A stretch of DNA of 64,000 nucleotides from Dictyostelium discoideum (lineage: Eukaryota), in NCBI GenBank assembly GCA_000004695.1, contig CM000152.2, positions 4,224,001 through 4,288,000 of the forward strand, written 5' to 3'. A program made the position numbers and the translations under genes. This document shows, piece by piece, positions 4,761-46,636 of the stretch. Each line of letters opens with the position of its first letter. The stretch's first letter is position 1. The notes below the pieces were generated by a model. The model did not search any database and had not been told where the DNA came from. It was given only the letters and a program-made list of their open reading frames with translations.

Positions 4761-6881
4761 TTAATAATCATCTTCTTCATAGTTATTAAAATTACGACTT
4801 AATAAACTACCAGATTGAATTGGTTGAATTGGTTCATAATCATCATCATCATCGTCTTCTTTATTTGTTTCTTTTGGATTGATAGAGGTATTTTTAGAGG
4901 TGCCATCAGTAGATAACATTGCACCTACGGCAGCTTGATTATTTGATGCACCAGCCCCACCAAATAAACCCATAGTAACGAAATTTGGTTTGAAGAGACC
5001 TAATTTCTCAACGAGTTTTGCATTTCTAGTTCTCTTTTTTAATTCTTCTTCAGCGGCAGCTTGTGCATTTTCAGCAGATTTCTTACTTACAGGTGCTTTT
5101 CTCTTTCTTGGTGGTCTACCAGCTTTAATATCCTCCTCAATCTCTCTTTGTCTTTCTTCATTCTTTTCAATCCATTCTTTATTTAATTCCACCCAAATCT
5201 CTTCTTTCTTTTTTACAGTATCTTTATCATGTTCCAAGTAAAAATCTAATTCTTCATCACTTAAATTTTCCAATTCATCATTTGGTGCAAAAACTGATTG
5301 ATCAATTGTTGATGTTATAGTTGGGTATGATACAACAGAATCCATTGTTTTATTAATTGGTGTTGGTAAATCTATTGGTGCTGAACTCTCATTATTTTGA
5401 CTTGTAGTTGTAGTTGTTGTTGTTTGTGTGGTTGTTGTTGATGATGGTGGTGGTGTTGTATCTGGTTCTTGACTTTGACTTTCTTTAATTTTTTCATCCA
5501 TTTCATTTTTTACTTTTTGAGCTAAAGTTTTAATATCGGATTGAATTTTTTCAAACTTTTCAATATTCTCCAAAAGTGTTGTTGGAATTGAATCTACATT
5601 TGTAATATCCTTAATAGATTGAACATTTTGTGAACCTTTGACTATATCATTTGATTCTTTTTCAATATCATCATCATCTTTTAATAATTCTCTCTTTCTT
5701 TTTTTATTCTTCTTATTATCACCTTTAGTTTCTTCATTTAAATTATCTTCTTCCTCCTCTTCATCATCGTCATCATCATCTTCCTCTTCTTCTTCTTCCT
5801 CTTCACCTTCACCTCCTTTAATTTTATCTTTTTTATCTTTTTTTAAGTCTTGTTTTTTTTCCAATTTTTTCTCTATTTCTTCTTTATTTTCTTTTATAAT
5901 TATTTCTTTATTATCTTTATTATTTTCAAGTTCAAGTAATTTTTTTTTCTCTTTTTTTAATCTTTTTCTTTCTTTTTTTTCTTCTAAAAGTTTTAATTTT
6001 TCTTCTTCTTTCTTTTCTTTTAATCTTGCTCTTGTGAAAGAGGGTGGATCACATTGATCCTCTAAATCCATACCATTGAATTCATCGAATCTAAGGGTAG
6101 CAGTTGGTGTTTTTCTAAATTCATCTAAACGATTGATTAAAGTTTGTTCACCAATTTTAACGACATGAACGATTTCTTTCATTGATCTTTTGAAACCATG
6201 AATTTTTGAAGCGATATATAATGAAGCACCACAAATACCTGATGGCTTTCTACCAATTGACATCCAATCTCTCTTCATTCTAGCGACTAATTTATTAGCG
6301 GTCGCAATTACATCTTTAGTTTGATCACCAAACTCTAAGGCTGATGCAAATCTTTGAATGAAGAAACTTGGATCTACAATTGGTAATTGAATATTTAATA
6401 ATTTGATCAATTGAAGGAATGTACCAGCAACTATGAATACATTGACTTGAAGATTCTCTGAAAAGTCAATTAGTAGATGAGGTGTTCTCTCTCTACGACA
6501 AACTATATATAAACATGCTGCTGCAACCAATCTTGTTTGTCTACCTTTGGTGAAATTATTCTCCATTGCCAATTCAAAGGTTCTTTGTGCACTATCGATT
6601 AAATGACTTCTAATTCTTAATGAGTTACCAATTTGATCCAATTTTTTACGTGCATTCTCTACTGACATTGCCCTTGAATCTCTTCCTCCTAATGATCTAT
6701 AGGATGATGGTTTCCTAGTTGCACTAACAAATGTACCAACAATTGATGAATCTCCTCCAAATTGTACTTCTGATACAATGTTTGCTGATTCTTTAACTGT
6801 ACCACATGCTGTACATACAACACTACCTTCATTTGATGACGCAAATGAATCATTTCCACAATTTCCACAATTTTTTGACAT
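4761..6881 (-). CDS. TFIIB-related factor BRF1, RNA polymerase III TFIIIB subunit; single exon
   Basis: N-terminal Zn-ribbon CGNCGN...CTACG. Two cyclin-like repeats RQTRLVAAACLYIVCRRERTPHLLIDFSENLQVNVF and RKPSGICGASLYIASKIHGF. The long acidic/K-rich C-terminus is typical of BRF. Close match to human BRF1 in the conserved blocks. Confidence 0.9.
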   Translation of the reverse strand: MSKNCGNCGNDSFASSNEGSVVCTACGTVKESANIVSEVQFGGDSSIVGTFVSATRKPSSYRSLGGRDSRAMSVENARKKLDQIGNSLRIRSHLIDSAQRTFELAMENNFTKGRQTRLVAAACLYIVCRRERTPHLLIDFSENLQVNVFIVAGTFLQLIKLLNIQLPIVDPSFFIQRFASALEFGDQTKDVIATANKLVARMKRDWMSIGRKPSGICGASLYIASKIHGFKRSMKEIVHVVKIGEQTLINRLDEFRKTPTATLRFDEFNGMDLEDQCDPPSFTRARLKEKKEEEKLKLLEEKKERKRLKKEKKKLLELENNKDNKEIIIKENKEEIEKKLEKKQDLKKDKKDKIKGGEGEEEEEEEEDDDDDDEEEEEDNLNEETKGDNKKNKKRKRELLKDDDDIEKESNDIVKGSQNVQSIKDITNVDSIPTTLLENIEKFEKIQSDIKTLAQKVKNEMDEKIKESQSQEPDTTPPPSSTTTTQTTTTTTTSQNNESSAPIDLPTPINKTMDSVVSYPTITSTIDQSVFAPNDELENLSDEELDFYLEHDKDTVKKKEEIWVELNKEWIEKNEERQREIEEDIKAGRPPRKRKAPVSKKSAENAQAAAEEELKKRTRNAKLVEKLGLFKPNFVTMGLFGGAGASNNQAAVGAMLSTDGTSKNTSINPKETNKEDDDDDDYEPIQPIQSGSLLSRNFNNYEEDDY

Positions 6882-9727: not shown

Positions 9728-11580
9728 ATAAAATTTAAAATTTAAAATTTAAAATAATTTAGTTTCTTTTTATTGTTTTTATTGTTTTTAAATCTTTTTT
9801 AATTTTAAAATTTTGTGTTATTGTTTTATTGTTTTATTGTTTATGTTTTAAATCTTGAAAACCAGTATCAAAACAATGTAAATAAGAGAATTACCAGCAA
9901 GTATCCAAACTATTACTTGCTTTAATACGTTTATAACCAATGACCCAGGGTGAAGATATTTTTCACAAACTGTAATTCGTGAAGTTTGGGAAGAGCAGAT
10001 ACTCATACTGAGTTTGTTAGCATTCATTAGAAAATGTGGTGTCCATTTACAAGTTGAATCTGTTAAAGTTTCCAAATTATTAGATGATGAATTTCTCAAC
10101 CTCAAAAACATTGACCAAAATGAAATATTATATTACATATATATCAAATATAATTGTAATGGTTGTTCAGGAAATATCACAATATCTATTTTCGACCTCC
10201 TTTATTATCAAAGCTAAATGTCCAAAATGTGCAAGAAAAAGAGGAGAACATCAAATGATTTAAACAAATACCACTTGAAGAACATAAGTCCAATAGATCT
10301 TCAAGAACATCAAATATCATGGAGCACCATTAAAAGCAATAATATCATGAAAACGGATGATGGCCAACAACTTTTAAATTTTGTAATGGCAATCAAAGTG
10401 TATATTAAGAGATACATTGGATTCTATTGAAAACAAATATGCCATTTATAATAAAACAAACAAATGAATTGGCAACCTTTTTATTTGATAATCCATTGGG
10501 AAGAATAAGCCATATCTTATTAAATGACCATTTTATTTTTCAATTAAATGACGTTGAAAGAGTTACTACTAAATAATTTAATTCAAATTTAAATAAAAAT
10601 ATAATACCACCAAAAACCACAAACTATTTCAAATGTAACTAACTACAACTAAATCCTATATCACCATCATCATCATCATCATAATCACAAAATGAAGCTG
10701 TACAGAAGATGGAAAATTGTAAATAAAATTTAAATTTTAAAATCTAAAATCTAAAATAATTTATTTTTGTTTTATTGTTTTTATTGTTTTTATTGTTTTT
10801 ATTGTTTTAAATCTTCAAAATCAGTATCAGAACCATGATAAACAAAAGAATTACCAGCACGTAAACTATTGGCGACAGCACTTGCTTTCATACCTTTATA
10901 ACCATTGAAACAATAATCATAAGCTAATCTTGAAACTGATTTTTGAAGTGGGAATGGTGTTTCGATCTCTGTGAATTCTTTTACAGGTGCCCATTTACAT
11001 TGAGCGATTTCAGATGGATCACTATTGATTTCACTTGACAACGGCTTAAGAGCACAGATAAAATATATGTCACCTCTGTTAAAGGCATAGTTGTGCAACT
11101 GACGAAGGCCAAGAATGCTCACAAACTCAGTACGAATACCTGTCTCTTCCCAAACTTCACGAACTGCAGTCTCGCAAATATCTTCACCTGGGTCGTTGGC
11201 TCCACCTGGTATCTTCCATTTATCAGGTCTTTGCTTCTCAGTGATCAATAGAATTTCATTACGGTCATTAATTACAACACCACCACAACCAATGAAATGA
11301 GAGGTATAGTGTGGTAATTTATTTGGTTCCCCGATTGGTAGCCATTTAGTCAACATTATGTAATTGGATTGGCAATGATGAAATGAGAATCCATTCTCTA
11401 CCAATGTTGGAATTAATATTGAATTAGTTTCTGGTATCTCTATCCAAATGCCTCTACGTTTATTCTCTGTCCAAAATTGTAAACTATTTTTAATGATTTC
11501 TTTAAATTTACTAACACTATCTTCCCCACTACCCTTTGGGTATTGTGTTGTATCTTTAACAATAATACCATCGAAAATAT
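9569..11580. repeat. Tandem segmental duplication of ~1 kb, units ~9569-10573 and ~10574-11580, spanning the convergent 3' ends of the CCHC gene and the Nudix gene
   Basis: caaatttaaataaaaatataata...tcacaaaatgaagctg...attgtaaataaaatttaaa...ttattgttttaaatctt is present at both 9569-9860 and 10574-10812. Unit 1 keeps an intact CCHC 3' end and a decayed Nudix 3' end. Unit 2 keeps a decayed CCHC 3' end and the intact Nudix 3' end. Confidence 0.7.
9848..10570 (-). pseudogene. Scrambled pseudogene fragment of the Nudix hydrolase C-terminal region, including a ~90-bp inverted Nudix-box segment
   Basis: 9848-9935 matches 10806-10900 (~70% identity). Residual translation ...CKWTPHF...ILAGNSLIY corresponds to Nudix ...CKWAPVKEF...LRAGNSFVY. 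9936-10027 is the reverse complement of 11110-11200, the GEDICETAVREVWEETG box, with a frameshift. Confidence 0.65.
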
Positions 11581-16787: not shown

Positions 16788-16858
16788 GCGTATGTGGTCT
16801 AGTGGTATGATAGCTGCCTTCCAAGCAGTTGAACCGGGTTCGATTCCCGGCATACGCA
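16788..16858 (+). tRNA. tRNA-Gly (anticodon UCC)
   Basis: 71-nt cloverleaf. Acceptor GCGTATG/CATACGC, T-arm CCGGGTTCGATTCCCGG, anticodon loop CTTCCAA. An A-box-like TGGTCTAGTGG and a B-box GGTTCGATTCC are present. Confidence 0.9.
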
Positions 16859-16959: not shown

Positions 16960-17982
16960 TGTTCAGTTAAAATTTTAATAAAAGTCTTTAACTACATCTG
17001 AACGAGATATCATCTGAAAGATTGAAATTGTGATTTAAATCTATTCGTAGTTTTTTAAAAGGAGAGGTGGAAAGTAGAGACAGATAAAATAATAATAAAA
17101 ATTCATTCATTTTCTTAAACATAAAATATATCATATTAATTTTATTATTTTATTATTTATCAAGGATTTTACCAATCTCTATCGAGTATGGATTTAAGTT
17201 TGTTTAGTTTGGAAGATGTTGAAAATTAGTATTCAAATTGGGCTAACAGTGCTCTTTGTAGTTGCTAGGGTTAAAGAATTATCCTCAAAGGAATGCAATT
17301 TTTCTCTTAGATTGGTTTATTGGCTGCACACACATCGTTAATATACTCACAATCCCAATAACTCCACAATCCTACAAAGACAAAACCCCTATATACATGA
17401 TCCAGCCGATTTACCATTATATACTCCGGCCCCCAAAACAACCTATAACCGATTACTAATCCTAAATTTACTGGTTATACTTTCATAAATCTATTCAAAA
17501 ACATTCTCAAAATGTAGTAAAACTCATTTCATTCTAGATGCCTACCTATTAACCAACATGACCAACTTTGCCATCTCTACAATGAAGACATGCCCGATCT
17601 ATCTGGTCCCCTCTTCTTAGAGTGACACACGAATATTACAATTCATAAACTTTAAGGAGATTAAAACAGTAATCATTGATCTCACAGACTCATTATTTAT
17701 ACCTTGTATTATAATTATTATGAAACAACCACCTAAAACCATCACAAAAGATAAATTGAAATCAGATTTCATTGTCCATACCCAACCCTTCTATTAAATA
17801 GTGCAAACTACACTAGAATATAAAATAAAAAAATTGAAATTTTCTCTTTCAAAAGATCCAAGTAATTTTAGATATTTTTACCTAAAAAAAAAGATCAAGA
17901 AAATGTCATACCATCTTCAATAACCTATTTAATGATTTAATCAAAAAACAATATTAAAACTGGTAAGAATTGAGTTAATAGT

Positions 17983-18016
<34 letters not shown>

Positions 18017-18045
18017 TTGGTAAAAAAAAAAAAAAAAAAAAAAAA
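16960..18045 (+). mobile_element. 5'-truncated non-LTR retroelement fragment (TRE3-like, tRNA-downstream class) ending in (AAT)n/poly(A)
   Basis: Complex, relatively GC-rich non-coding sequence starting ~100 bp downstream of tRNA-Gly, ending in poly(A) at ~18020-18045. The 17760-17900 segment is homologous to 42940-43060, downstream of tRNA-Lys(CUU). Confidence 0.4.
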
Positions 18046-18187
18046 GTAGTTTAATATTGGTAAAAATGAATAACCAAATGACAATAATAAAGTTACCAAA
18101 TGGTTTTTTTTTTTTTTTTTTTATTTATTTTAGATTTAAAACAAAGGAAAAAAAAAAAAATAATAAAAATAGAAACAAGAATTCTTT

Positions 18188-23069: not shown

Positions 23070-23330
23070 TTGCAAGTTATATTTATGTTAACTGGACAAG
23101 AGTCGAACTTATGTTCTTTTTCCGGAAGTTCCGAGAATATTGGTTTGTAGAAAAATATATGCGTATGCCGGGAATCGAACCCGGTTCAACTGCTTGGAAG
23201 GCAGCTATCATACCACTAGACCACATACGCTATGTTGATGAGATTTTGGGGTAAATGCCCGAATAAGTTTTAAAAAAATTATTGATGATTTTGATTGATT
23301 AAATTTTTTTTGGTGATGTAGAAAAATTTT
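23070..23330. repeat. Inverted duplicate of the tRNA-Gly locus unit (tRNA plus ~100 bp upstream and ~60 bp downstream flank), partner at ~16690-16950
   Basis: The upstream flank atcaccaaaaaaaattta...cttattcgggca.ttacc.caaaatctca.caaca and the downstream cggaacttc.ggaa.agaacataagttcgactctt are conserved in both copies in opposite orientation. Confidence 0.75.
23160..23230 (-). tRNA. tRNA-Gly (anticodon UCC), identical to the copy at 16788-16858
   Basis: The reverse complement of 23160-23230 equals the 71-nt tRNA-Gly sequence exactly. A T-run follows on the minus strand. Confidence 0.9.
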
Positions 23331-41076: not shown

Positions 41077-41274
41077 AACTTTATCTATTGAATAAATAAA
41101 TAAAAAATAAATAAAATAATAAAAAAAAAAAAAAAAAGAAATAAATGCGCAAAAAAAAAAGAAAAAAAATAATAACAATAAATGATATATATAAATATTT
41201 ATATACAAATAATCCTTTCCTTTTATTGTTGTTATTACTATCAAAGTTTTTTTTTTTTTTTTTTTTTTTTTTAT

Positions 41275-42052
41275 TTATTCATCACTATTTGTTGATGCAT
41301 TTGCAGCTTCTTCATTTAATTGAGAACGTGATTTTCTTTCATCCATTGATTTTAAATATTCTTGATGTTTTGGACCTTTTGAAACTCTTACCATTAATTC
41401 AACACTTGGTATACTATCTGTATGAATTTCTAATATAAAAAAAAATAAAAAAATATATATATTAAAATTCCACTCTTGGAAACCATCCTTTTTTTTTTTT
41501 TTTAAAAAAATTAAATTAAAACTTACTTTCAACTTTAATAACATCTTTTGATTTTAAATAGTCAATAGTTGTTACAACTTTTGCAATTGCTTCACCTAAA
41601 CCAGAAATATTAACAAATTCTTCAGTATCTAAATATCTTGCAGTGAGATCTGAAAAGTAATAAAGATTTTTTGTTTTTTCTGCTGATACCTTTATTTTTT
41701 TAATTTCTGGTTTGTTTGTATTTTCTGTTGTTGTTGTTGTTGTTGTTGGTGATGTGGCAGTTGTTGGTGATGTAATTGACGCTGTGGTTGGTGATGTTTG
41801 AGTTTCTACTATAAAATAATATTCATTTTTAATAATTTAATTATATTTATTTATTTATTTGTATATATATATTTTATTAATTTATTTATTAATTATTTAA
41901 AAGAGGAGAGAAAAAAAAAAAAAAATTAAAATAAAAAATAAAAAAAAGGTTTGATTTAATATGAGACATTTGAATTTTTTTATTTTTATTTTTATTTTTT
42001 AATTTTTATTTTTTTTTATTTTTTTTTCCTATTGATTTTAATTACCTGACAT
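41275..42052 (-). CDS. Alba-like protein, probable RNase P/MRP subunit Rpp20/Pop7 homologue; exons 42052-42046 (7-nt micro-exon ATGTCAG), 41808-41527, 41429-41275
   Basis: VNISGLGEAIAKVVTTIDYLK resembles the Alba/Rpp20 GLG.AI..A...A..L motif. Donors are GTAATT at 42045 and GTAAGT at 41526; acceptors are ttatag at 41809 and tattag at 41430; phases are consistent. Confidence 0.55.
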
Positions 42053-42690
42053 ATCTAGATATTTATAAATTTATTATTATTTAGTTTATTATGTTTGATA
42101 TTGTATTATTATTTTATTTATTATCTAATTTAATTTTAGTTTTTTAAAATCTTTATATTTTTTTTTTTCACTTTTTTATTTTATTTTTATTTTGTAAATG
42201 AACTCAATGAATTTTTTAATTTAATTATAAAAAAAATTATTTGAAAAAAAAAAAAAAAATAAAAAAAAAAAAAAAAAATTGTTTTTTTTTTTTTTCAAAC
42301 AAAATATGCATTATTTTTATTTTTTTTATTTTTTTTTTTTTATTTATTTTCTTTTATTTTATTTTTATATTTCCTTTTTTTTTTACCAAAATAAGAATGA
42401 TAAATGTTTTTTTATTAAACCAATTTAAATTGGCATTTTTTTATTTTAAATGAACAATCTCCATTACAAAAAATAAAATAAATTATCAAAAAAATAATTA
42501 ACCTTCAGTATTCGTCCATCGGTTAAGTTTTATCAATTTTGTCTTATTTATAAAAAATAGAGTTTTTTTTGAATTGGGTACCGAATGGATGAGATCTTAG
42601 GTCACACAGATTTAACCAAACTTTCCTACCCTTGCTTTAAATTATAAAAAATAATTTTAATGTAATATTAAATTTGAAAATATCAAAAAT

Positions 42691-42763
42691 GCCCGGCTAG
42701 CTCAGTCGGTAGAGCGCCAGACTCTTAATCTGGTGGTCGGGGGTTCGAGCCCCCCGTTGGGCG
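42691..42763 (+). tRNA. tRNA-Lys (anticodon CUU)
   Basis: 73-nt cloverleaf with anticodon loop CTCTTAA and T-arm GGGGGTTCGAGCCCCCC, followed by a T-run. Confidence 0.9.
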
Positions 42764-42766
42764 AAT

Positions 42767-42773
42767 TTTTTTC
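42767..42773 (+). terminator. Pol III oligo(T) terminator after tRNA-Lys(CUU)
   Basis: ttttttt immediately 3' of the tRNA. Confidence 0.5.
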
Positions 42774-42839
42774 CAATACAACCACTTGTACGAAGTTCGT
42801 ATTTTTGAATGGTATATTAATATGAAAAAAAAAAAAAAA

Positions 42840-43195
42840 ACAATAACAAAATACGTAATTAGAAATCTAAATTAATATTTTTTATTAATAAAGATTTAAA
42901 ATAATTAATTGTATAGTGATGAACCTTCTAAAAATGAAAAGATTTCATATTCCACTCTACCTAATAAATGTTACAAACTAGAATATAAAAAATTAATTAA
43001 CTCTTTCAAAAGATCCCAGCAATTTTAAAGACCTAAACGATTTCTTTAAACATTATATTTAACTTCACTATATTTAAAATTCTGAATTTTGATAATTAAA
43101 TAAAAGGAATACCTACTTGACATTTTATAACTTGTGATGTTTGTGAATTAATAATTAGGTTTATAATCGACTATACATTGATATCAAAGATGCAT
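42840..43195 (+). mobile_element. Retroelement fragment homologous to the tRNA-Gly-downstream element (TRE3-like)
   Basis: aaactagaatataaaa...ctctttcaaaagatcccagcaattttaaagacc matches 17795-17870, beginning ~80-150 bp downstream of tRNA-Lys(CUU). Confidence 0.4.
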
Positions 43196-43211
43196 AATTA
43201 GACTACAATAA

Positions 43212-44050
43212 TATTCATAAAAAATGGTATTTTTTTTTTTTTATATAATCAACAATCTGACGTTTATTTGTTTGAATTTTTGGTGTTTTTGTTGTATCTC
43301 TTTTTGCCAACGAGGTGGATTTGTGGGGTTTATGGGAATTCCAAGTAGATTTAAGCTTTTCTCCAAAATCATGATCGATTTTAACTTCGTTGGTTTTGAT
43401 GGAACTTAGTTATCTCTCTTTTCTCTTTCTTCTTCTTGTATTTTGTAAGAAATACCACGTACTGGATAATTAGCAATACGTCTCATTAAATGGGTACAGA
43501 AACCTTAAATCTTGTTTCTGTACCCATACCTCTAGAGGTTTTGATAAAGAATAATCTTTTATTATTTGGTTTTTAATATTTTTAATTTGTATGATGTATT
43601 TGATTCTGTTACAAATTGGGAGGATGTCTTTTGATGATGCTAATTTAAGAATTATATCATAGTCTAATGTTGTGGCTTGGGTTTTAGTAGAGTTGATTTC
43701 AAATCCATATACATACTTGGTGAAATATCATTGCTATTAAGTTTTTATAGGAGAAATGTCTTGAGAGGTCATAATCTATGGCCTTGTAGCACCATATGAA
43801 GTGTGGTTTATGAAATCTTATATGAATGTAGTCCATGTTGATTTCGTAGTCTTTCTTCATATAAGGATTATTGGTGTGATTTTGTTTTATTGTTTATAAT
43901 CATTCATTCGTGTAACCAGTTAGATTTCCCGCCTGTTGATTTGAAGATGAATCTCGTTAGTTTGGTAGTGTTAATATATGAATATAAATAGCTCAAAATT
44001 TCTGTATCCCAAACTCTGCCTAACCAATTAAAGTATAAATAACCATATCT
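43212..44050 (-). mobile_element. Non-coding, degenerate retroelement-like sequence on the minus strand with a poly(A) tail (T15 on the plus strand at 43211-43225), downstream of tRNA-Lys(UUU)
   Basis: Complex, non-AT-rich sequence with no long ORF. A hairpin ggtacagaaacaagatttaaggtttctgtaccc is present. Confidence 0.3.
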
Positions 44051-44061
44051 GGAATTGAACC
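44051..44061 (-). promoter_or_regulatory. ex-B box (GGTTCAATTCC on the minus strand) ~32 bp downstream of tRNA-Lys(UUU)
   Basis: Matches the B-box consensus GGTTCGANTCC. Part of the flank duplicated at 46276-46314; an orphan copy lies at 45613-45623. Confidence 0.5.
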
Positions 44062-44092
44062 TGTGATCTATCTTATACTAAATCTAAAATTT

Positions 44093-44165
44093 CGCCCAAA
44101 GGGGGGCTCGAACCCCCGACCACAAGGTTAAAAGCCTTGCGCTCTACCGACTGAGCTATCTGGGC
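44093..44165 (-). tRNA. tRNA-Lys (anticodon UUU)
   Basis: The reverse complement gives gcccagatagctcagtcggtagagcgcaaggcttttaaccttgtggtcgggggttcgagcccccctttgggcg, with anticodon loop CTTTTAA. Confidence 0.9.
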
Positions 44166-44212
44166 ATTTTTGGAAATTTCGAAATTAAAAACAACTACAG
44201 AACGATTTTTTA

Positions 44213-45062
44213 AGCCTGGAAGTTGTTGCACCACCCAAGAGAGCGAATAACTCTCAAACTAAACCAAGTCAAACCCAAATACGAAAACAAACAAAAATTA
44301 AAAGTAATCTATAGAAACATGATGGATATCAAATACAAGGGATGGAACAAACACCAGCCAACAACAGGTCAAAAACTGATTCAAAAGAACATTAATCACC
44401 CAATTCTACCATTTAGAGAAGCCAGATCAATCACAACTATCAAAGGAAGAGACTTAGCGTGGAGATATCTACTCAAGGCACTTCCAAAACACCATGGGGA
44501 GAATTGTCACTCATGTAAAGAAGAAGAGTCGTCTATGCACATCTTCTTCGAATGCAAATCAATAAAACAGAATATCGACTCAATCTATCAAAAGGTCTGT
44601 AAAGACTCCAACAACACTTACCACGGTCCATGGAGCGAAAAAGTTCTCGGAAAACTACTCACACCATTCTCATCAAATCTGATAGGAGCCATTATGGAAT
44701 CGATATGGTACAGAAGAAATCAAATAAAATTCAACGATAACACTACAATAATAACAGAGAACCAAATAATTCATAAAATCAAAAAAGCGAGAGATGCCGA
44801 ATGGGATAGAACAAGAAAGATAGTAGAAAAGCAACTACGTCAAGAACTAAGATGCACTGATAACCGAGAGTCAATCAATCGGACCGCATCAATAAAAAGA
44901 AGACTCGAAAAATTCAGCCACAACTGGAACTCGAAACTCATGACCATAAACATCCCGGAACACTTCATACCATACTGCTCATATAACACCAACTCATAAA
45001 AAAAAAAAAAAAAAAAATTATAACAATAATAATAATAATAATAATATAATAATAATAATAAT

Positions 45063-45093
<31 letters not shown>

Positions 45094-45106
45094 TAAGAAT
45101 AACAAG

Positions 45107-45164
<58 letters not shown>

Positions 45165-45170
45165 AAACTC
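44213..45170 (+). mobile_element. 5'-truncated tRNA-upstream non-LTR retrotransposon fragment (TRE5-like): ORF2 C-terminal tail (intact 258-aa ORF 44223-44999 with a CCHC-type zinc finger) plus an A-rich/(AAT)n 3' tract
   Basis: Begins ~50-58 bp upstream of the tRNA-Lys(UUU) 5' end, the classic TRE5 position. Contains HGENCHSCKEEESSMHIFFECKS. Followed by A16, (AAT)n and an A45 tract at 45000-45160. Confidence 0.5.
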
Positions 45171-45227
45171 TCCTAGAACACACTCAAATTGAGTGATGTT
45201 ATTACGATTTTTTTTAACCATCTCTTT

Positions 45228-45440
45228 TAGAGGCCCTGTAAAAATATTACAAATAAAATGAGATCTAGCATCTCAAGGAGATGCAACTAATAATTGTCTG
45301 ATTAAAAAAATAAAAAAACTAGATTGTTAACACTTACTTTATGAGGCCTAGTAAACTACAAATAAAATGGGACCTAGAATCTACAGGAGAGGCAACTAAA
45401 CATTTCACTATCCAATACAAAAAAGGTCGATTTTTAATTT
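45228..45440 (+). repeat. Two tandem ~105-bp repeats (gaggccctgtaaaaatattacaaataaaatgagatctagcatctcaaggagatgcaactaa / gaggcctagtaaactacaaataaaatgggacctagaatctacaggagaggcaactaa)
   Basis: Direct repeat immediately 3' of the A-rich tract, possibly a retroelement 3' (C-module-like) region. Confidence 0.5.
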
Positions 45441-45599
45441 GAATAATAAAATTTCATATTTGAAATGAAAGCGATAGTTGTTTCATTACAGTCACACTAG
45501 AAACAACTTCAATTAATTATTGGAATATAATTGTGTAAATATTTTATGTAAAAATTGATGTTTATGAAATGTTGGATTTAACTTATGTTTAGTTAATGA

Positions 45600-46314
45600 T
45601 TTAATAAGTTAGGAGTTGAACCTGTGATCTATCTTATTTTTTTTTTGATATAAATAAACTATTGTAGTATACAATTAGTATGTTATTTTTATTTATTTAT
45701 TTTAGGTTTTTTAGTTTTTGTGAATTTAAAATAGTATGTTATTTTAGATTAGGTAATTAATAATTAATTGGTGGTGTAATTGTTGGAATTGGTTCATTAG
45801 TGTTTATGCTCCATTCTTTTTTAAATTTTTTGATGGTTTCGGACCATTGGGTTTCTTTTTGAGTTTTTGTGAGGTTGTTTTTAATTGAGTATTGGTTAAA
45901 GTTCTTGAATATTCCAATCTTATTAGCTTGTGCCATTTTGATTTTAATATATCATAATCTAGTGTTGTGTTGTTTATTTGGTTGTTCTAATTATCAATTG
46001 ATTGAGTTATATTGATGTCAAATAATGATTTGCATAACCATATCCATATTTGGTGAATAACTAATGAGATTATGTTCCAATATGCATGTGTTCTGACTAG
46101 ATCAAGATTTGTGTTTATATAATTCCAGTTGAACCTGTATTTTTTATATTGTGCGTTTTCTGCAAAATGAAAATTAATATTGATAGTTGGATCTGGTTTA
46201 AATGCTTTGTTGTTTGTTTGTGGTTTATAGATGAGTGTGTATAATTTTGTTGTTTGGTTTTTTGTTAGTGACCAGTTTTTGATAGTGATCTATCTTATAC
46301 TAAATTTAAAATTT
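45600..46314 (-). mobile_element. Degenerate retroelement-like sequence plus a duplicated tRNA-Lys(UUU) 3' flank; includes an orphan ex-B-box copy (45613-45623) not attached to a tRNA
   Basis: gttgaacctgtgatctatcttat at 45613 and gtgatctatcttatactaaatttaaaatttcgccc at 46280 copy the flank at 44057-44095. No ORF longer than 60 aa. Confidence 0.3.
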
Positions 46315-46387
46315 CGCCCAAAGGGGGGCTCGAACCCCCGACCACAAGGTTAAAAGCCTTGCGCTCTACCGACTGAGCTATCTGGGC
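46315..46387 (-). tRNA. tRNA-Lys (anticodon UUU), second identical copy
   Basis: Identical 73-nt sequence to 44093-44165. Confidence 0.9.
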
Positions 46388-46636
46388 ATATTTGAAAATT
46401 TTAATTTTTTTACAAAATCACATTGATTTTTAATGACAATCGAAAATTTAAAATTTTAAATAAAAATAAAACAAAAGCAATAGAAATCTTTTTTTTTTTA
46501 AAAACAATTCTATCAAGATTTGAATTGAAATTGATTGAGGTATTAACTTCATTCTAAACCTAAAAAAAAAACTTTTTTTTAAATTTTTTTTTTTTTTTAT
46601 TTTTCTATTTTTTTTTAGAAAACACATCGCACCACC

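Follow-up and report, generated by a model that had tools for sequence, protein, structure and literature searches.

How can an external B box (ex-B box), a motif that 66% of tRNA genes have about 41 bp downstream (PMC3159450), come to stand far from any tRNA gene? The question is raised by a cluster of three tRNA-Lys genes in a 64,000-nucleotide stretch of Dictyostelium discoideum DNA (NCBI GenBank assembly GCA_000004695.1, contig CM000152.2, positions 4,224,001 to 4,288,000 of the forward strand), referred to below as the window, whose numbering is used throughout unless another locus is named. In a first-pass annotation made from the letters alone, a copy of an ex-B-box flank was seen to lie by itself next to a run of T, as though the T-run had replaced a tRNA gene, and either recombination between flank copies or retroelement-mediated capture of an RNA polymerase III (Pol III) promoter element was suggested. 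We consider it very probable that the cluster has instead been hit repeatedly by tRNA gene-targeted retroelements (TREs) through target-primed reverse transcription (TPRT), and that the 'orphan' box is the own box of the second tRNA-Lys-UUU gene, displaced by the insertion of a TRE3-type retrotransposon that we call element C. The sequence relationships, duplications, orientations and distances found at the locus carry this account.

The locus belongs to an already sequenced and annotated reference genome, since the ATG-started open reading frame (ORF) at 44319-44996 matches the D. discoideum AX4 protein DDB_G0281245 (XP_640907) exactly and a second D. discoideum assembly (GCA_054883475.1, contig CM142509.1 of 6.43 Mb, at ~4.34 Mb) is 99.7% identical over window positions 34302-55027, with its structure unchanged. 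The G+C content across the window is 22.7%. Both ARAGORN and Rfam upheld the three tRNA-Lys genes annotated at the outset, namely one with the anticodon CUU on the plus strand (tRNA-Lys-CUU, 42690-42764, internal B box 42742-42752) and two with UUU on the minus strand (tRNA-Lys-UUU-1, 44092-44166, internal B box 44104-44114; tRNA-Lys-UUU-2, 46314-46388, internal B box 46326-46336). The two UUU genes are identical and tRNA-Lys-CUU departs from both at eight positions; Rfam returned nothing besides these three tRNAs.

An exact duplication and a restored unit at tRNA-Lys-UUU-2

The motif GGTTCRANYCC matches the window seven times, against 0.1 expected, and five of these matches fall on internal B boxes, one in each of the five tRNA genes. 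Ex-B boxes make up the remaining two: ex-B box 1 (GGTTCAATTCC, 44051-44061, minus strand), 31 bp downstream of tRNA-Lys-UUU-1, and ex-B box 2 (GGTTCAACTCC, 45612-45622, minus strand), which is the 'orphan' and, in all likelihood, the original ex-B box of tRNA-Lys-UUU-2. The boxes differ by a single base, both fit the motif GTTCRAnYC in the orientation of the tRNA genes, and by motif and position both are candidate TFIIIC-binding, Pol III promoter elements. Like known ex-B boxes they share this motif and a place 31 bp downstream of a tRNA gene, which for box 2 is regained once the insert described below is removed; unlike them, box 2 now lies 692 bp from its gene. The first-pass annotation was right to take the box at 44051-44061 and the lone copy at 45612-45637 as real, but it also placed a box in the flank of the third tRNA gene, where neither a motif search of the window nor a repeat comparison found one (46285-46313).

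Comparison of the two UUU loci brings out how the lone copy and this flank belong together. The repeat that the loci have in common (44063-44179 and 46285-46401; 117 nt, 97%) begins just tRNA-proximal of the ex-B box, while the lone copy at 45612-45637, behind which comes the T-run, agrees with 44051-44076 in 25 of 26 positions. These two partial flank matches overlap by exactly 14 nt, GTGATCTATCTTAT, a 14-mer with three matches in the window against 0.02 expected: a single copy at the UUU-1 locus (44063-44076), and two that form an exact 14-bp target-site duplication at 45624-45637 (distal copy) and 46285-46298 (proximal copy, 16 bp downstream of tRNA-Lys-UUU-2). Between the duplicated copies lies element C, a 5'-truncated TRE3-type retrotransposon (45638-46284, 647 bp, minus strand) with ~90% amino acid identity to the DDB_G0274719 family. 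Joining 45601-45637 to 46299-46422 yields a sequence colinear with 44040-44200, and within it 45612-45637 joined to 46299-46401 forms a colinear copy of 44051-44179, a 129-bp unit, with only four differences.

The exact 14-bp duplication, together with the colinearity restored by removing 647 bp, argues that the box was never moved or captured and that an insertion split it from its tRNA gene. What had made recombination between flank copies attractive, or the capture and transport of an ex-B box by a retroelement, was the position of the box (45612-45637) beside retroelement sequence and a T-run and far from any tRNA. However, the 14 bp common to the lone flank and the flank of the second UUU gene are the exact overlap expected from a target duplication, and between them lies a single, complete element, 5'-truncated but with a 3' end and a tail of its own. 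The ex-B box stands outside both the element and the duplication, so the element did not carry it, and the whole structure is explained without any recombination junction. Both versions of the earlier proposal are therefore very unlikely, and the T-run, far from replacing a tRNA gene, is best read as the poly(A) tail of the inserted element.

A genome of 22.7% G+C that is rich in T-runs also invites a more trivial account, in which the 26-bp ex-B flank matches by chance or was duplicated independently as a small segment, microsatellite slippage made the T-run, and 45638-46284 is unrelated resident sequence. Against this, a 25/26 match that includes the G+C-containing B-box motif is expected 0.1 times per window, and the match stops precisely at the start of the element tail. 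In addition, the paralogous UUU-1 locus has no T-run and the neighbouring sequence is 97% identical to a dispersed repeat, which leaves chance or local duplication with hardly any credibility.

We propose that tRNA-Lys-UUU-1 and -2 are copies of one 129-bp unit composed of an ex-B box, a 30-bp spacer, the tRNA gene and ~13 bp of upstream flank. A TRE3-type element would have nicked copy 2 within its spacer, at a point 16 bp downstream from its tRNA gene, perhaps guided there by TFIIIB/TFIIIC, as the literature on such elements suggests. It would then have been copied in from its poly(A) end in the orientation of the tRNA gene, becoming 5'-truncated and duplicating 14 bp of its target, and in doing so would have moved the copy-2 ex-B box 661 bp away (from 31 to 692 bp), giving it the look of an orphan beside a T-run that would be the tail of element C. 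The unoccupied UUU-2 site would, on this proposal, read contiguously as GGAGTTGAACCT-GTGATCTATCTTAT-ACTAAAT, and an allele without the 647 bp is expected as ...GGAGTTGAACCTGTGATCTATCTTATACTAAAT..., with a single copy of the 14-mer.

Identity and position of element C

Element C bears the hallmarks of TPRT, in that the exact 14-bp duplication is accompanied by an A9 tail (45638-45646) adjoining its distal copy, a 634-bp body with an intact 3' end (45647-46281), a 5' truncation, and three extra, unmatched nucleotides at the 5' junction (46282-46284). TRE3 elements insert downstream of tRNA genes and share their orientation (PMC5006619), and element C likewise lies downstream of tRNA-Lys-UUU-2 with both on the minus strand. 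The gene itself is untouched, its TTTT terminator being kept between gene and insertion. The duplication begins 16 bp and the element 30 bp from the gene, distances that fall within those observed for TRE3-A (14-228 bp) and TRE3-C (14-305 bp) and outside those for TRE3-B (34-188 bp) and TRE3-D (49-285 bp) (PMC5006619, Table 1).

A close relative at another tRNA locus (L002, 6108-6765) is 97% identical to element C over 645-658 nt. It begins immediately beyond the ex-B box of a tRNA-Gly-GCC gene, ~50 bp downstream and in tRNA orientation, and has a poly(A) end and a duplication, TTCTACGAA. Four more copies of the family differ in their 5' truncation points, and none has a tRNA within 3 kb because they are located behind other TREs. 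The longest ORF of the family (213 aa, DDB_G0274719) begins at the ...HLFFNC half of a zinc knuckle and is, judged by its sequence, the C-terminal part of a TRE-type ORF2. In the protein databases these relatives, like those of element A and fragment B1 below, are all called 'hypothetical protein', so that no TRE subfamily name could be taken from them.

The short distance to the gene raises the question of whether the insert between tRNA-Lys-UUU-2 and its ex-B box might be a long terminal repeat (LTR) element such as Skipper-2, since Skipper-2 is reported 8-23 bp downstream of tRNA genes and 16-30 bp overlaps that interval (PMC5006619). The insert nevertheless lacks terminal repeats; it is poly(A)-tailed and flanked by a 14-bp duplication, and its copies vary in 5' truncation. 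Its relatives start with a TRE-like 5' untranslated region (UTR) and ORF1 start and encode the region after the CCHC zinc knuckle typical of TRE ORF2, and the insert shares 33% amino acid identity with the other TRE3-type tail at the locus (fragment B1, below). An LTR element is accordingly a scarcely tenable alternative, and we continue to treat element C as TRE3-type.

Compared with TRE3-A to TRE3-D, the locus shows both a likeness and two departures. Fragment B1 and the L002 relative of element C each adjoin an ex-B box, as known TRE3 elements do. Element C, in contrast, sits between its tRNA gene and the ex-B box, at the proximal extreme of the published range, and its family is represented in protein collections by short ORFs only (≤213 aa). 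As a separate observation, the coding sequence of element C (YRFNWNY) contains an internal B-box-like sequence, GGTTCAACTGG (46127-46137), which is probably a coincidence.

TRE5-type layers upstream of tRNA-Lys-UUU-1

The first-pass annotation was right in its general picture of a Dictyostelium locus whose tRNA genes have TRE5-type sequence ~50 bp upstream and TRE3-type sequence on their downstream side. TRE5 elements insert 47±3 bp upstream of tRNA genes in opposite orientation (PMC5391098, PMC3159450), with an observed range of 34-90 bp (PMC5391098, PMC5006619). The truncated TRE5-like fragment seen earlier proves to be element A (44214-45203, plus strand), a 5'-truncated TRE5 copy that starts 48 bp from the mature tRNA-Lys-UUU-1 and lies in the opposite orientation, its 5' end pointing at that of the tRNA. 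Its target-site duplication, ACGATTTTTT(TT)AA, is present as a proximal copy, ACGATTTTTTAA (44202-44213), and a distal copy, ACGATTTTTTTTAACC (45204-45219), the latter with ACGATTTTTTTTAA directly after the element terminus. The core ACGATTTTTT occurs just twice in the 64 kb, at the two ends of element A.

The first part of element A (44214-44999) is an ORF2 tail of 260 codons and a stop, annotated as DDB_G0281245 from the ATG at 44319. Translated from 44214, it is identical at 260 of 260 amino acids to residues 795-1054 of a 1056-aa D. discoideum ORF2 (P0002), the copy being truncated at residue 795, and it is 89% identical to the tail of a 1144-aa ORF2 (P0010). The latter matches RVT_1 at 1e-36, and a domain search of it gave no endonuclease domain at E<0.01. 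The tail of element A contains a zinc knuckle, CHSCKEEESSMHIFFEC, with the motif CX2CX8HX4C; Pfam, run on the ORF2 tail, gave only a sub-threshold zf-RVT match. The 'intact ORF2-tail ORF' of the first-pass annotation is real as a plus-strand reading frame (44214-44999) and belongs to a young, 5'-truncated TRE5 copy; it is open because the copy is young and still identical to an active-type copy, and it is not a functional gene.

Downstream of the ORF2 stop come an internal A/(AAT)n-rich 3' UTR (45000-45158) and a conserved 45-nt 3' terminus (45159-45203) ending ...CAAATTGRGTGATGTTATT. The same architecture, in which an A/(AAT)n tract begins at the stop and leads to the same terminus, is found in relatives at two other tRNA loci, L003 and L004. 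The L003 relative is full-length, with ORF1 (468 aa) and ORF2, and begins 45 bp upstream of a tRNA-Ser gene to which it stands head to head; its duplication is CAAAAGGG, while the L004 relative begins ~50 bp upstream of a tRNA-Ile gene, in opposite orientation. With its A-rich tail, 5' truncation and duplication, its place 45-50 bp upstream with the 5' end toward that of the tRNA, and an ORF2 that in the family combines a reverse transcriptase domain with a C-terminal zinc knuckle, the group resembles TRE5-A, TRE5-B and TRE5-C. It is unlike TRE5-A and TRE5-C in having, in all three copies, neither B module nor C module after ORF2. Since the C module ends TRE5-A and TRE5-C and does not end TRE5-B (PMC3159450), element A is by exclusion probably a TRE5-B copy.

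Two further observations concern the family of element A. The L004 copy, 98% identical to element A, has an internal deletion and, at 5465-5570, an inverted ORF2 segment. The deletion ends on its right side (L004 4894) within 1-2 bp of the point where element A is 5'-truncated (window 44212), a coincidence for which we have no explanation. The A-rich 3' tract of the full-length TRE5 at L003 contains a segment of ~570 bp (~10489-11062) with 22-bp terminal inverted repeats (GGACCTATCAGTGAATAATTGA ... TCAATTATTCACTGATAGGTCC), which looks like the insertion of a small DNA transposon or miniature inverted-repeat transposable element.

Beyond element A lie two older-looking units of ~100 bp each on the plus strand. 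Unit 1 (45220-45318) is A-tailed and followed by a decayed target copy, AGATTGTTAAC (45321-45331), and unit 2 (45334-45424) ends ...TATCCAATAC(A)6 and is followed by a further target copy, TCGATTTTTAA (45427-45437). A solitary LTR of DGLT-A was considered for 45220-45460 and dropped in favour of A-tailed fragments resembling the C module. The C module is a 134-bp 3' module, and the bases T15, C26, A35 and C38 are named in describing mutations of the TRE5-A C module (PMC3159450). Units 1 and 2 resemble fragments distal to TRE5 copies in L002, L003 and L004, which end ...AATTGCGTTATCCAATTC(A)n. Counted by hand from the 3' end, the relatives in L002 and L003 carry all four diagnostic bases and unit 2 of the window three of four. 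From these four positions we infer that the units are C-module tips of TRE5-A or TRE5-C, TRE5-A being the element formerly called DRE.

Four variants of the target CGATTTTT..AA (44202-44213, 45204-45219, 45321-45331 and 45427-45437) separate element A and the two units, which implies at least three rounds of reuse of a single TRE5 nick site upstream of tRNA-Lys-UUU-1. The target CGATTTTT..AA, ~48 bp from the tRNA, would have received three or more TRE5 insertions, with the youngest (element A) left nearest the gene and the older C-module-like tips pushed outward. Successive insertions stacked as tandems at one target are a further likeness to known TRE5 elements, and TRE-TRE tandems have been described (PMC5391098, PMC3159450, PMC5911963). 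A separate example stands at L003 11297-11510, where four copies of CCTTTTTTGAAAT bracket three micro-insertions, each with its own poly(A). One is a 30-nt tip of the TRE5-B type, and the other two come from the C module, as a fragment of 86 nt and a tip of 20 nt. Repeated insertion at a single target is here carried to an extreme, with the same pattern as in the window.

Degenerate TRE3-type fragments downstream of tRNA-Lys-UUU-1 and tRNA-Lys-CUU

The poly(A)-ended minus-strand element that had been placed downstream of tRNA-Lys-UUU-1 was recovered as an A-tailed fragment marked by the plus-strand T-run at 43230-43242, and two parts can be told apart. Fragment B1 (43540-44050, minus strand), a degenerate ORF2 tail of TRE3 type, is interrupted by frameshifts and stops, and its 5' truncation falls just beyond the zinc-knuckle motif. 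It has 51-61% amino acid identity to ORF2-tail proteins of D. discoideum (for example ...DPYGHLFFEC...FHKPHFVWCYKAIDYDLSRHFSYKNLIAMIFHQ...), 77% nucleotide identity to a further compared locus (L009, 4231-4743) and 33% amino acid identity to the family of element C. Lying 42 bp downstream of tRNA-Lys-UUU-1 in the orientation of that gene, it adjoins ex-B box 1 on the distal side and is a typical old TRE3 insertion. Fragment B2 (43243-43539, minus strand) continues to the A13 tail (43230-43242), which overlaps a TAA stop codon; it is assigned to no family and shows no match to that of B1. It also holds a perfect hairpin with 12-bp stems (43492-43503 and 43514-43525).

Downstream of tRNA-Lys-CUU, a short, degenerate block resembling a TRE3-type 3' UTR (42930-43050, ~120 bp, plus strand) has uncertain boundaries, and no tail or duplication was identified for it. 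The same block occurs downstream of a tRNA-Gly-UCC gene (17753-17870) and of both tRNA-Ser genes of L003, always in tRNA orientation and followed by (AAT)n or poly(A). The fragment described earlier at this position thus stands as a block that recurs behind other tRNA genes, but its TRE3-like label is backed only loosely. Taken together, the fragments downstream of tRNA-Lys-UUU-1 and tRNA-Lys-CUU are old, degenerate and TRE3-type, the last term fitting the CUU fragment only loosely.

Weight and standing of the account

Several observations weigh against a history of repeated TRE insertion with element C as the displacing agent. No natural empty-site allele was retrieved by look-ups of DDB_G0281245 and of a neighbouring 1413-aa protein; the sole other assembly reached carries the same structure, and an 85%-identical homologue from D. 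cf. discoideum comes from a non-orthologous locus. At 16-30 bp, element C is closer than the usual 40-150 bp of the textbook (PMC5911963) and outside the range of TRE3-B (34-188 bp) and TRE3-D (49-285 bp), and its relatives resemble a low-copy family without full-length ORF2. The subfamily names used here are tentative, and element C is placed in the TRE3 type only. Of the other layers, element A lacks a terminal poly(A) behind the conserved 3' terminus, and in this too it differs from known TRE5 elements. Fragment B2 has no identifiable relatives, its 54-aa open stretch being unmatched among 1.84 billion protein representatives. No repeat of at least 7 nt was found as a duplication for B1 and B2, and only chance-level 8-mers for the fragment downstream of tRNA-Lys-CUU.

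In D. discoideum, 61% of tRNA genes carry at least one TRE (PMC5006619, PMC5391098) and 13% carry both types (PMC5006619), and the present locus is of this standard, already known kind, with TRE5 and TRE3 stacked at tRNA genes. Displacement of the box therefore has little wider significance, being a product of textbook TRE stacking in an annotated reference genome. The locus is useful as a clean worked example, in that a paralogous 'empty site' lies inside the same window, one TRE5 target has been reused repeatedly, and an ex-B box has been uncoupled from its tRNA by a TRE3 insertion that lies at the near limit of the known range. In addition, the split tRNA-Lys-UUU-2 locus is a natural instance of an ex-B box separated from its gene. 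The only part that might repay more work is a possible chimera of tRNA-Leu and a TRE5 tip upstream of tRNA-Lys-CUU.

A possible tRNA-Leu/TRE5-tip chimera

An apparent chimeric retrocopy of 82 bp (42560-42641, minus strand) has its proximal end 49 bp upstream of tRNA-Lys-CUU, toward which its 5' end points. It stands between two copies of a 12-bp direct repeat, TTATAAAAAATA (left copy 42548-42559, right copy 42642-42653). The repeat has three copies in the window against 1.5 expected, two of which flank the insert exactly, and the chance of a second copy within 100 bp is ~1 in 1000. On the minus strand the insert reads TTTAAA, nucleotides 1-56 of a tRNA-Leu (42635 to 42580), ACCCAATTC (42579 to 42571), A8 (42570 to 42563) and CTC. 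The tRNA-Leu 5' fragment, 55 bp upstream of tRNA-Lys-CUU, is identical at 53 of 56 positions to the tRNA-Leu-UAA gene of L002 and has neither T-arm nor B box. The missing 3' part is found nowhere in the window, and no other partial tRNAs occur in the compared loci. Downstream of the tRNA portion, CCAATTC(A)n corresponds to the very tip of the C-module-like fragments, whose last 15 nt match the chimera at 12 of 15 positions. The junction between the two parts, CATTCGGTACCCAATTC, shows a short patch of similarity (ATTCGGT versus ATTGCGTT), and the predicted RNA fold is not notable (z = -0.15).

A small-RNA 5' part, the 3' tip of a long interspersed nuclear element (LINE) and oligo(A) are thus found together within one duplication at a TRE5 target position, as in a chimeric retrocopy, and the CCAATTC(A)n tip, the 5' end facing tRNA-Lys-CUU and the 49-bp distance point to retrocopying by the TRE5 machinery. 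A TRE5-A or TRE5-C reverse transcriptase may have copied only the last 9-15 nt and the oligo(A) of its own RNA, and may then have switched across the short similarity to a tRNA-Leu precursor, copying to the end of its 5' leader. Such a chimeric retrocopy is the simplest reading, and we give about even chances to 42548-42653 being a template-switch product of this origin, a single case that is not proven. Filler DNA captured during repair is a possible explanation of the 82-bp insert, as is a decayed resident tRNA-Leu gene flanked by a chance repeat.

In mammals, U6/L1 chimeric retrocopies result from a template switch by the LINE reverse transcriptase onto a small Pol III RNA. The putative chimera resembles these in joining the 5' part of a Pol III RNA, with a 6-nt leader, to a LINE-like 3' tip and oligo(A), and in having one duplication round the whole insert at the canonical target position of the element. 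It is unlike them in that the tRNA part ends before the T-arm and is not full length, in that the LINE part comprises only ~9-15 nt, and in being a single case. A literature search of incomplete coverage found no published tRNA/TRE chimeras in Dictyostelium. If true, the chimera would be evidence that an amoebozoan LINE switches template, or that it mobilises Pol III transcripts in trans; if also recurrent, it would indicate that the TRE5 machinery can mobilise such transcripts in trans, as L1 does with U6.

Other features of the window

The second assembly carries an automatic gene model of 196 aa with a faint Alba match (L001 6961-9168, corresponding to window ~41262-43469), which covers tRNA-Lys-CUU and retroelement debris and is likely an annotation artefact. 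Elsewhere in the window, two identical tRNA-Gly-UCC genes (16788-16858 and 23160-23230) stand in convergent orientation and have common flanks, ~40 bp long upstream and ~80 bp long downstream, including an ex-B-like motif, AAGTTCGACTCTTGG. Downstream of the first of them lies an A-tailed plus-strand element ending in (AAT)n-A24 at 17985-18046.

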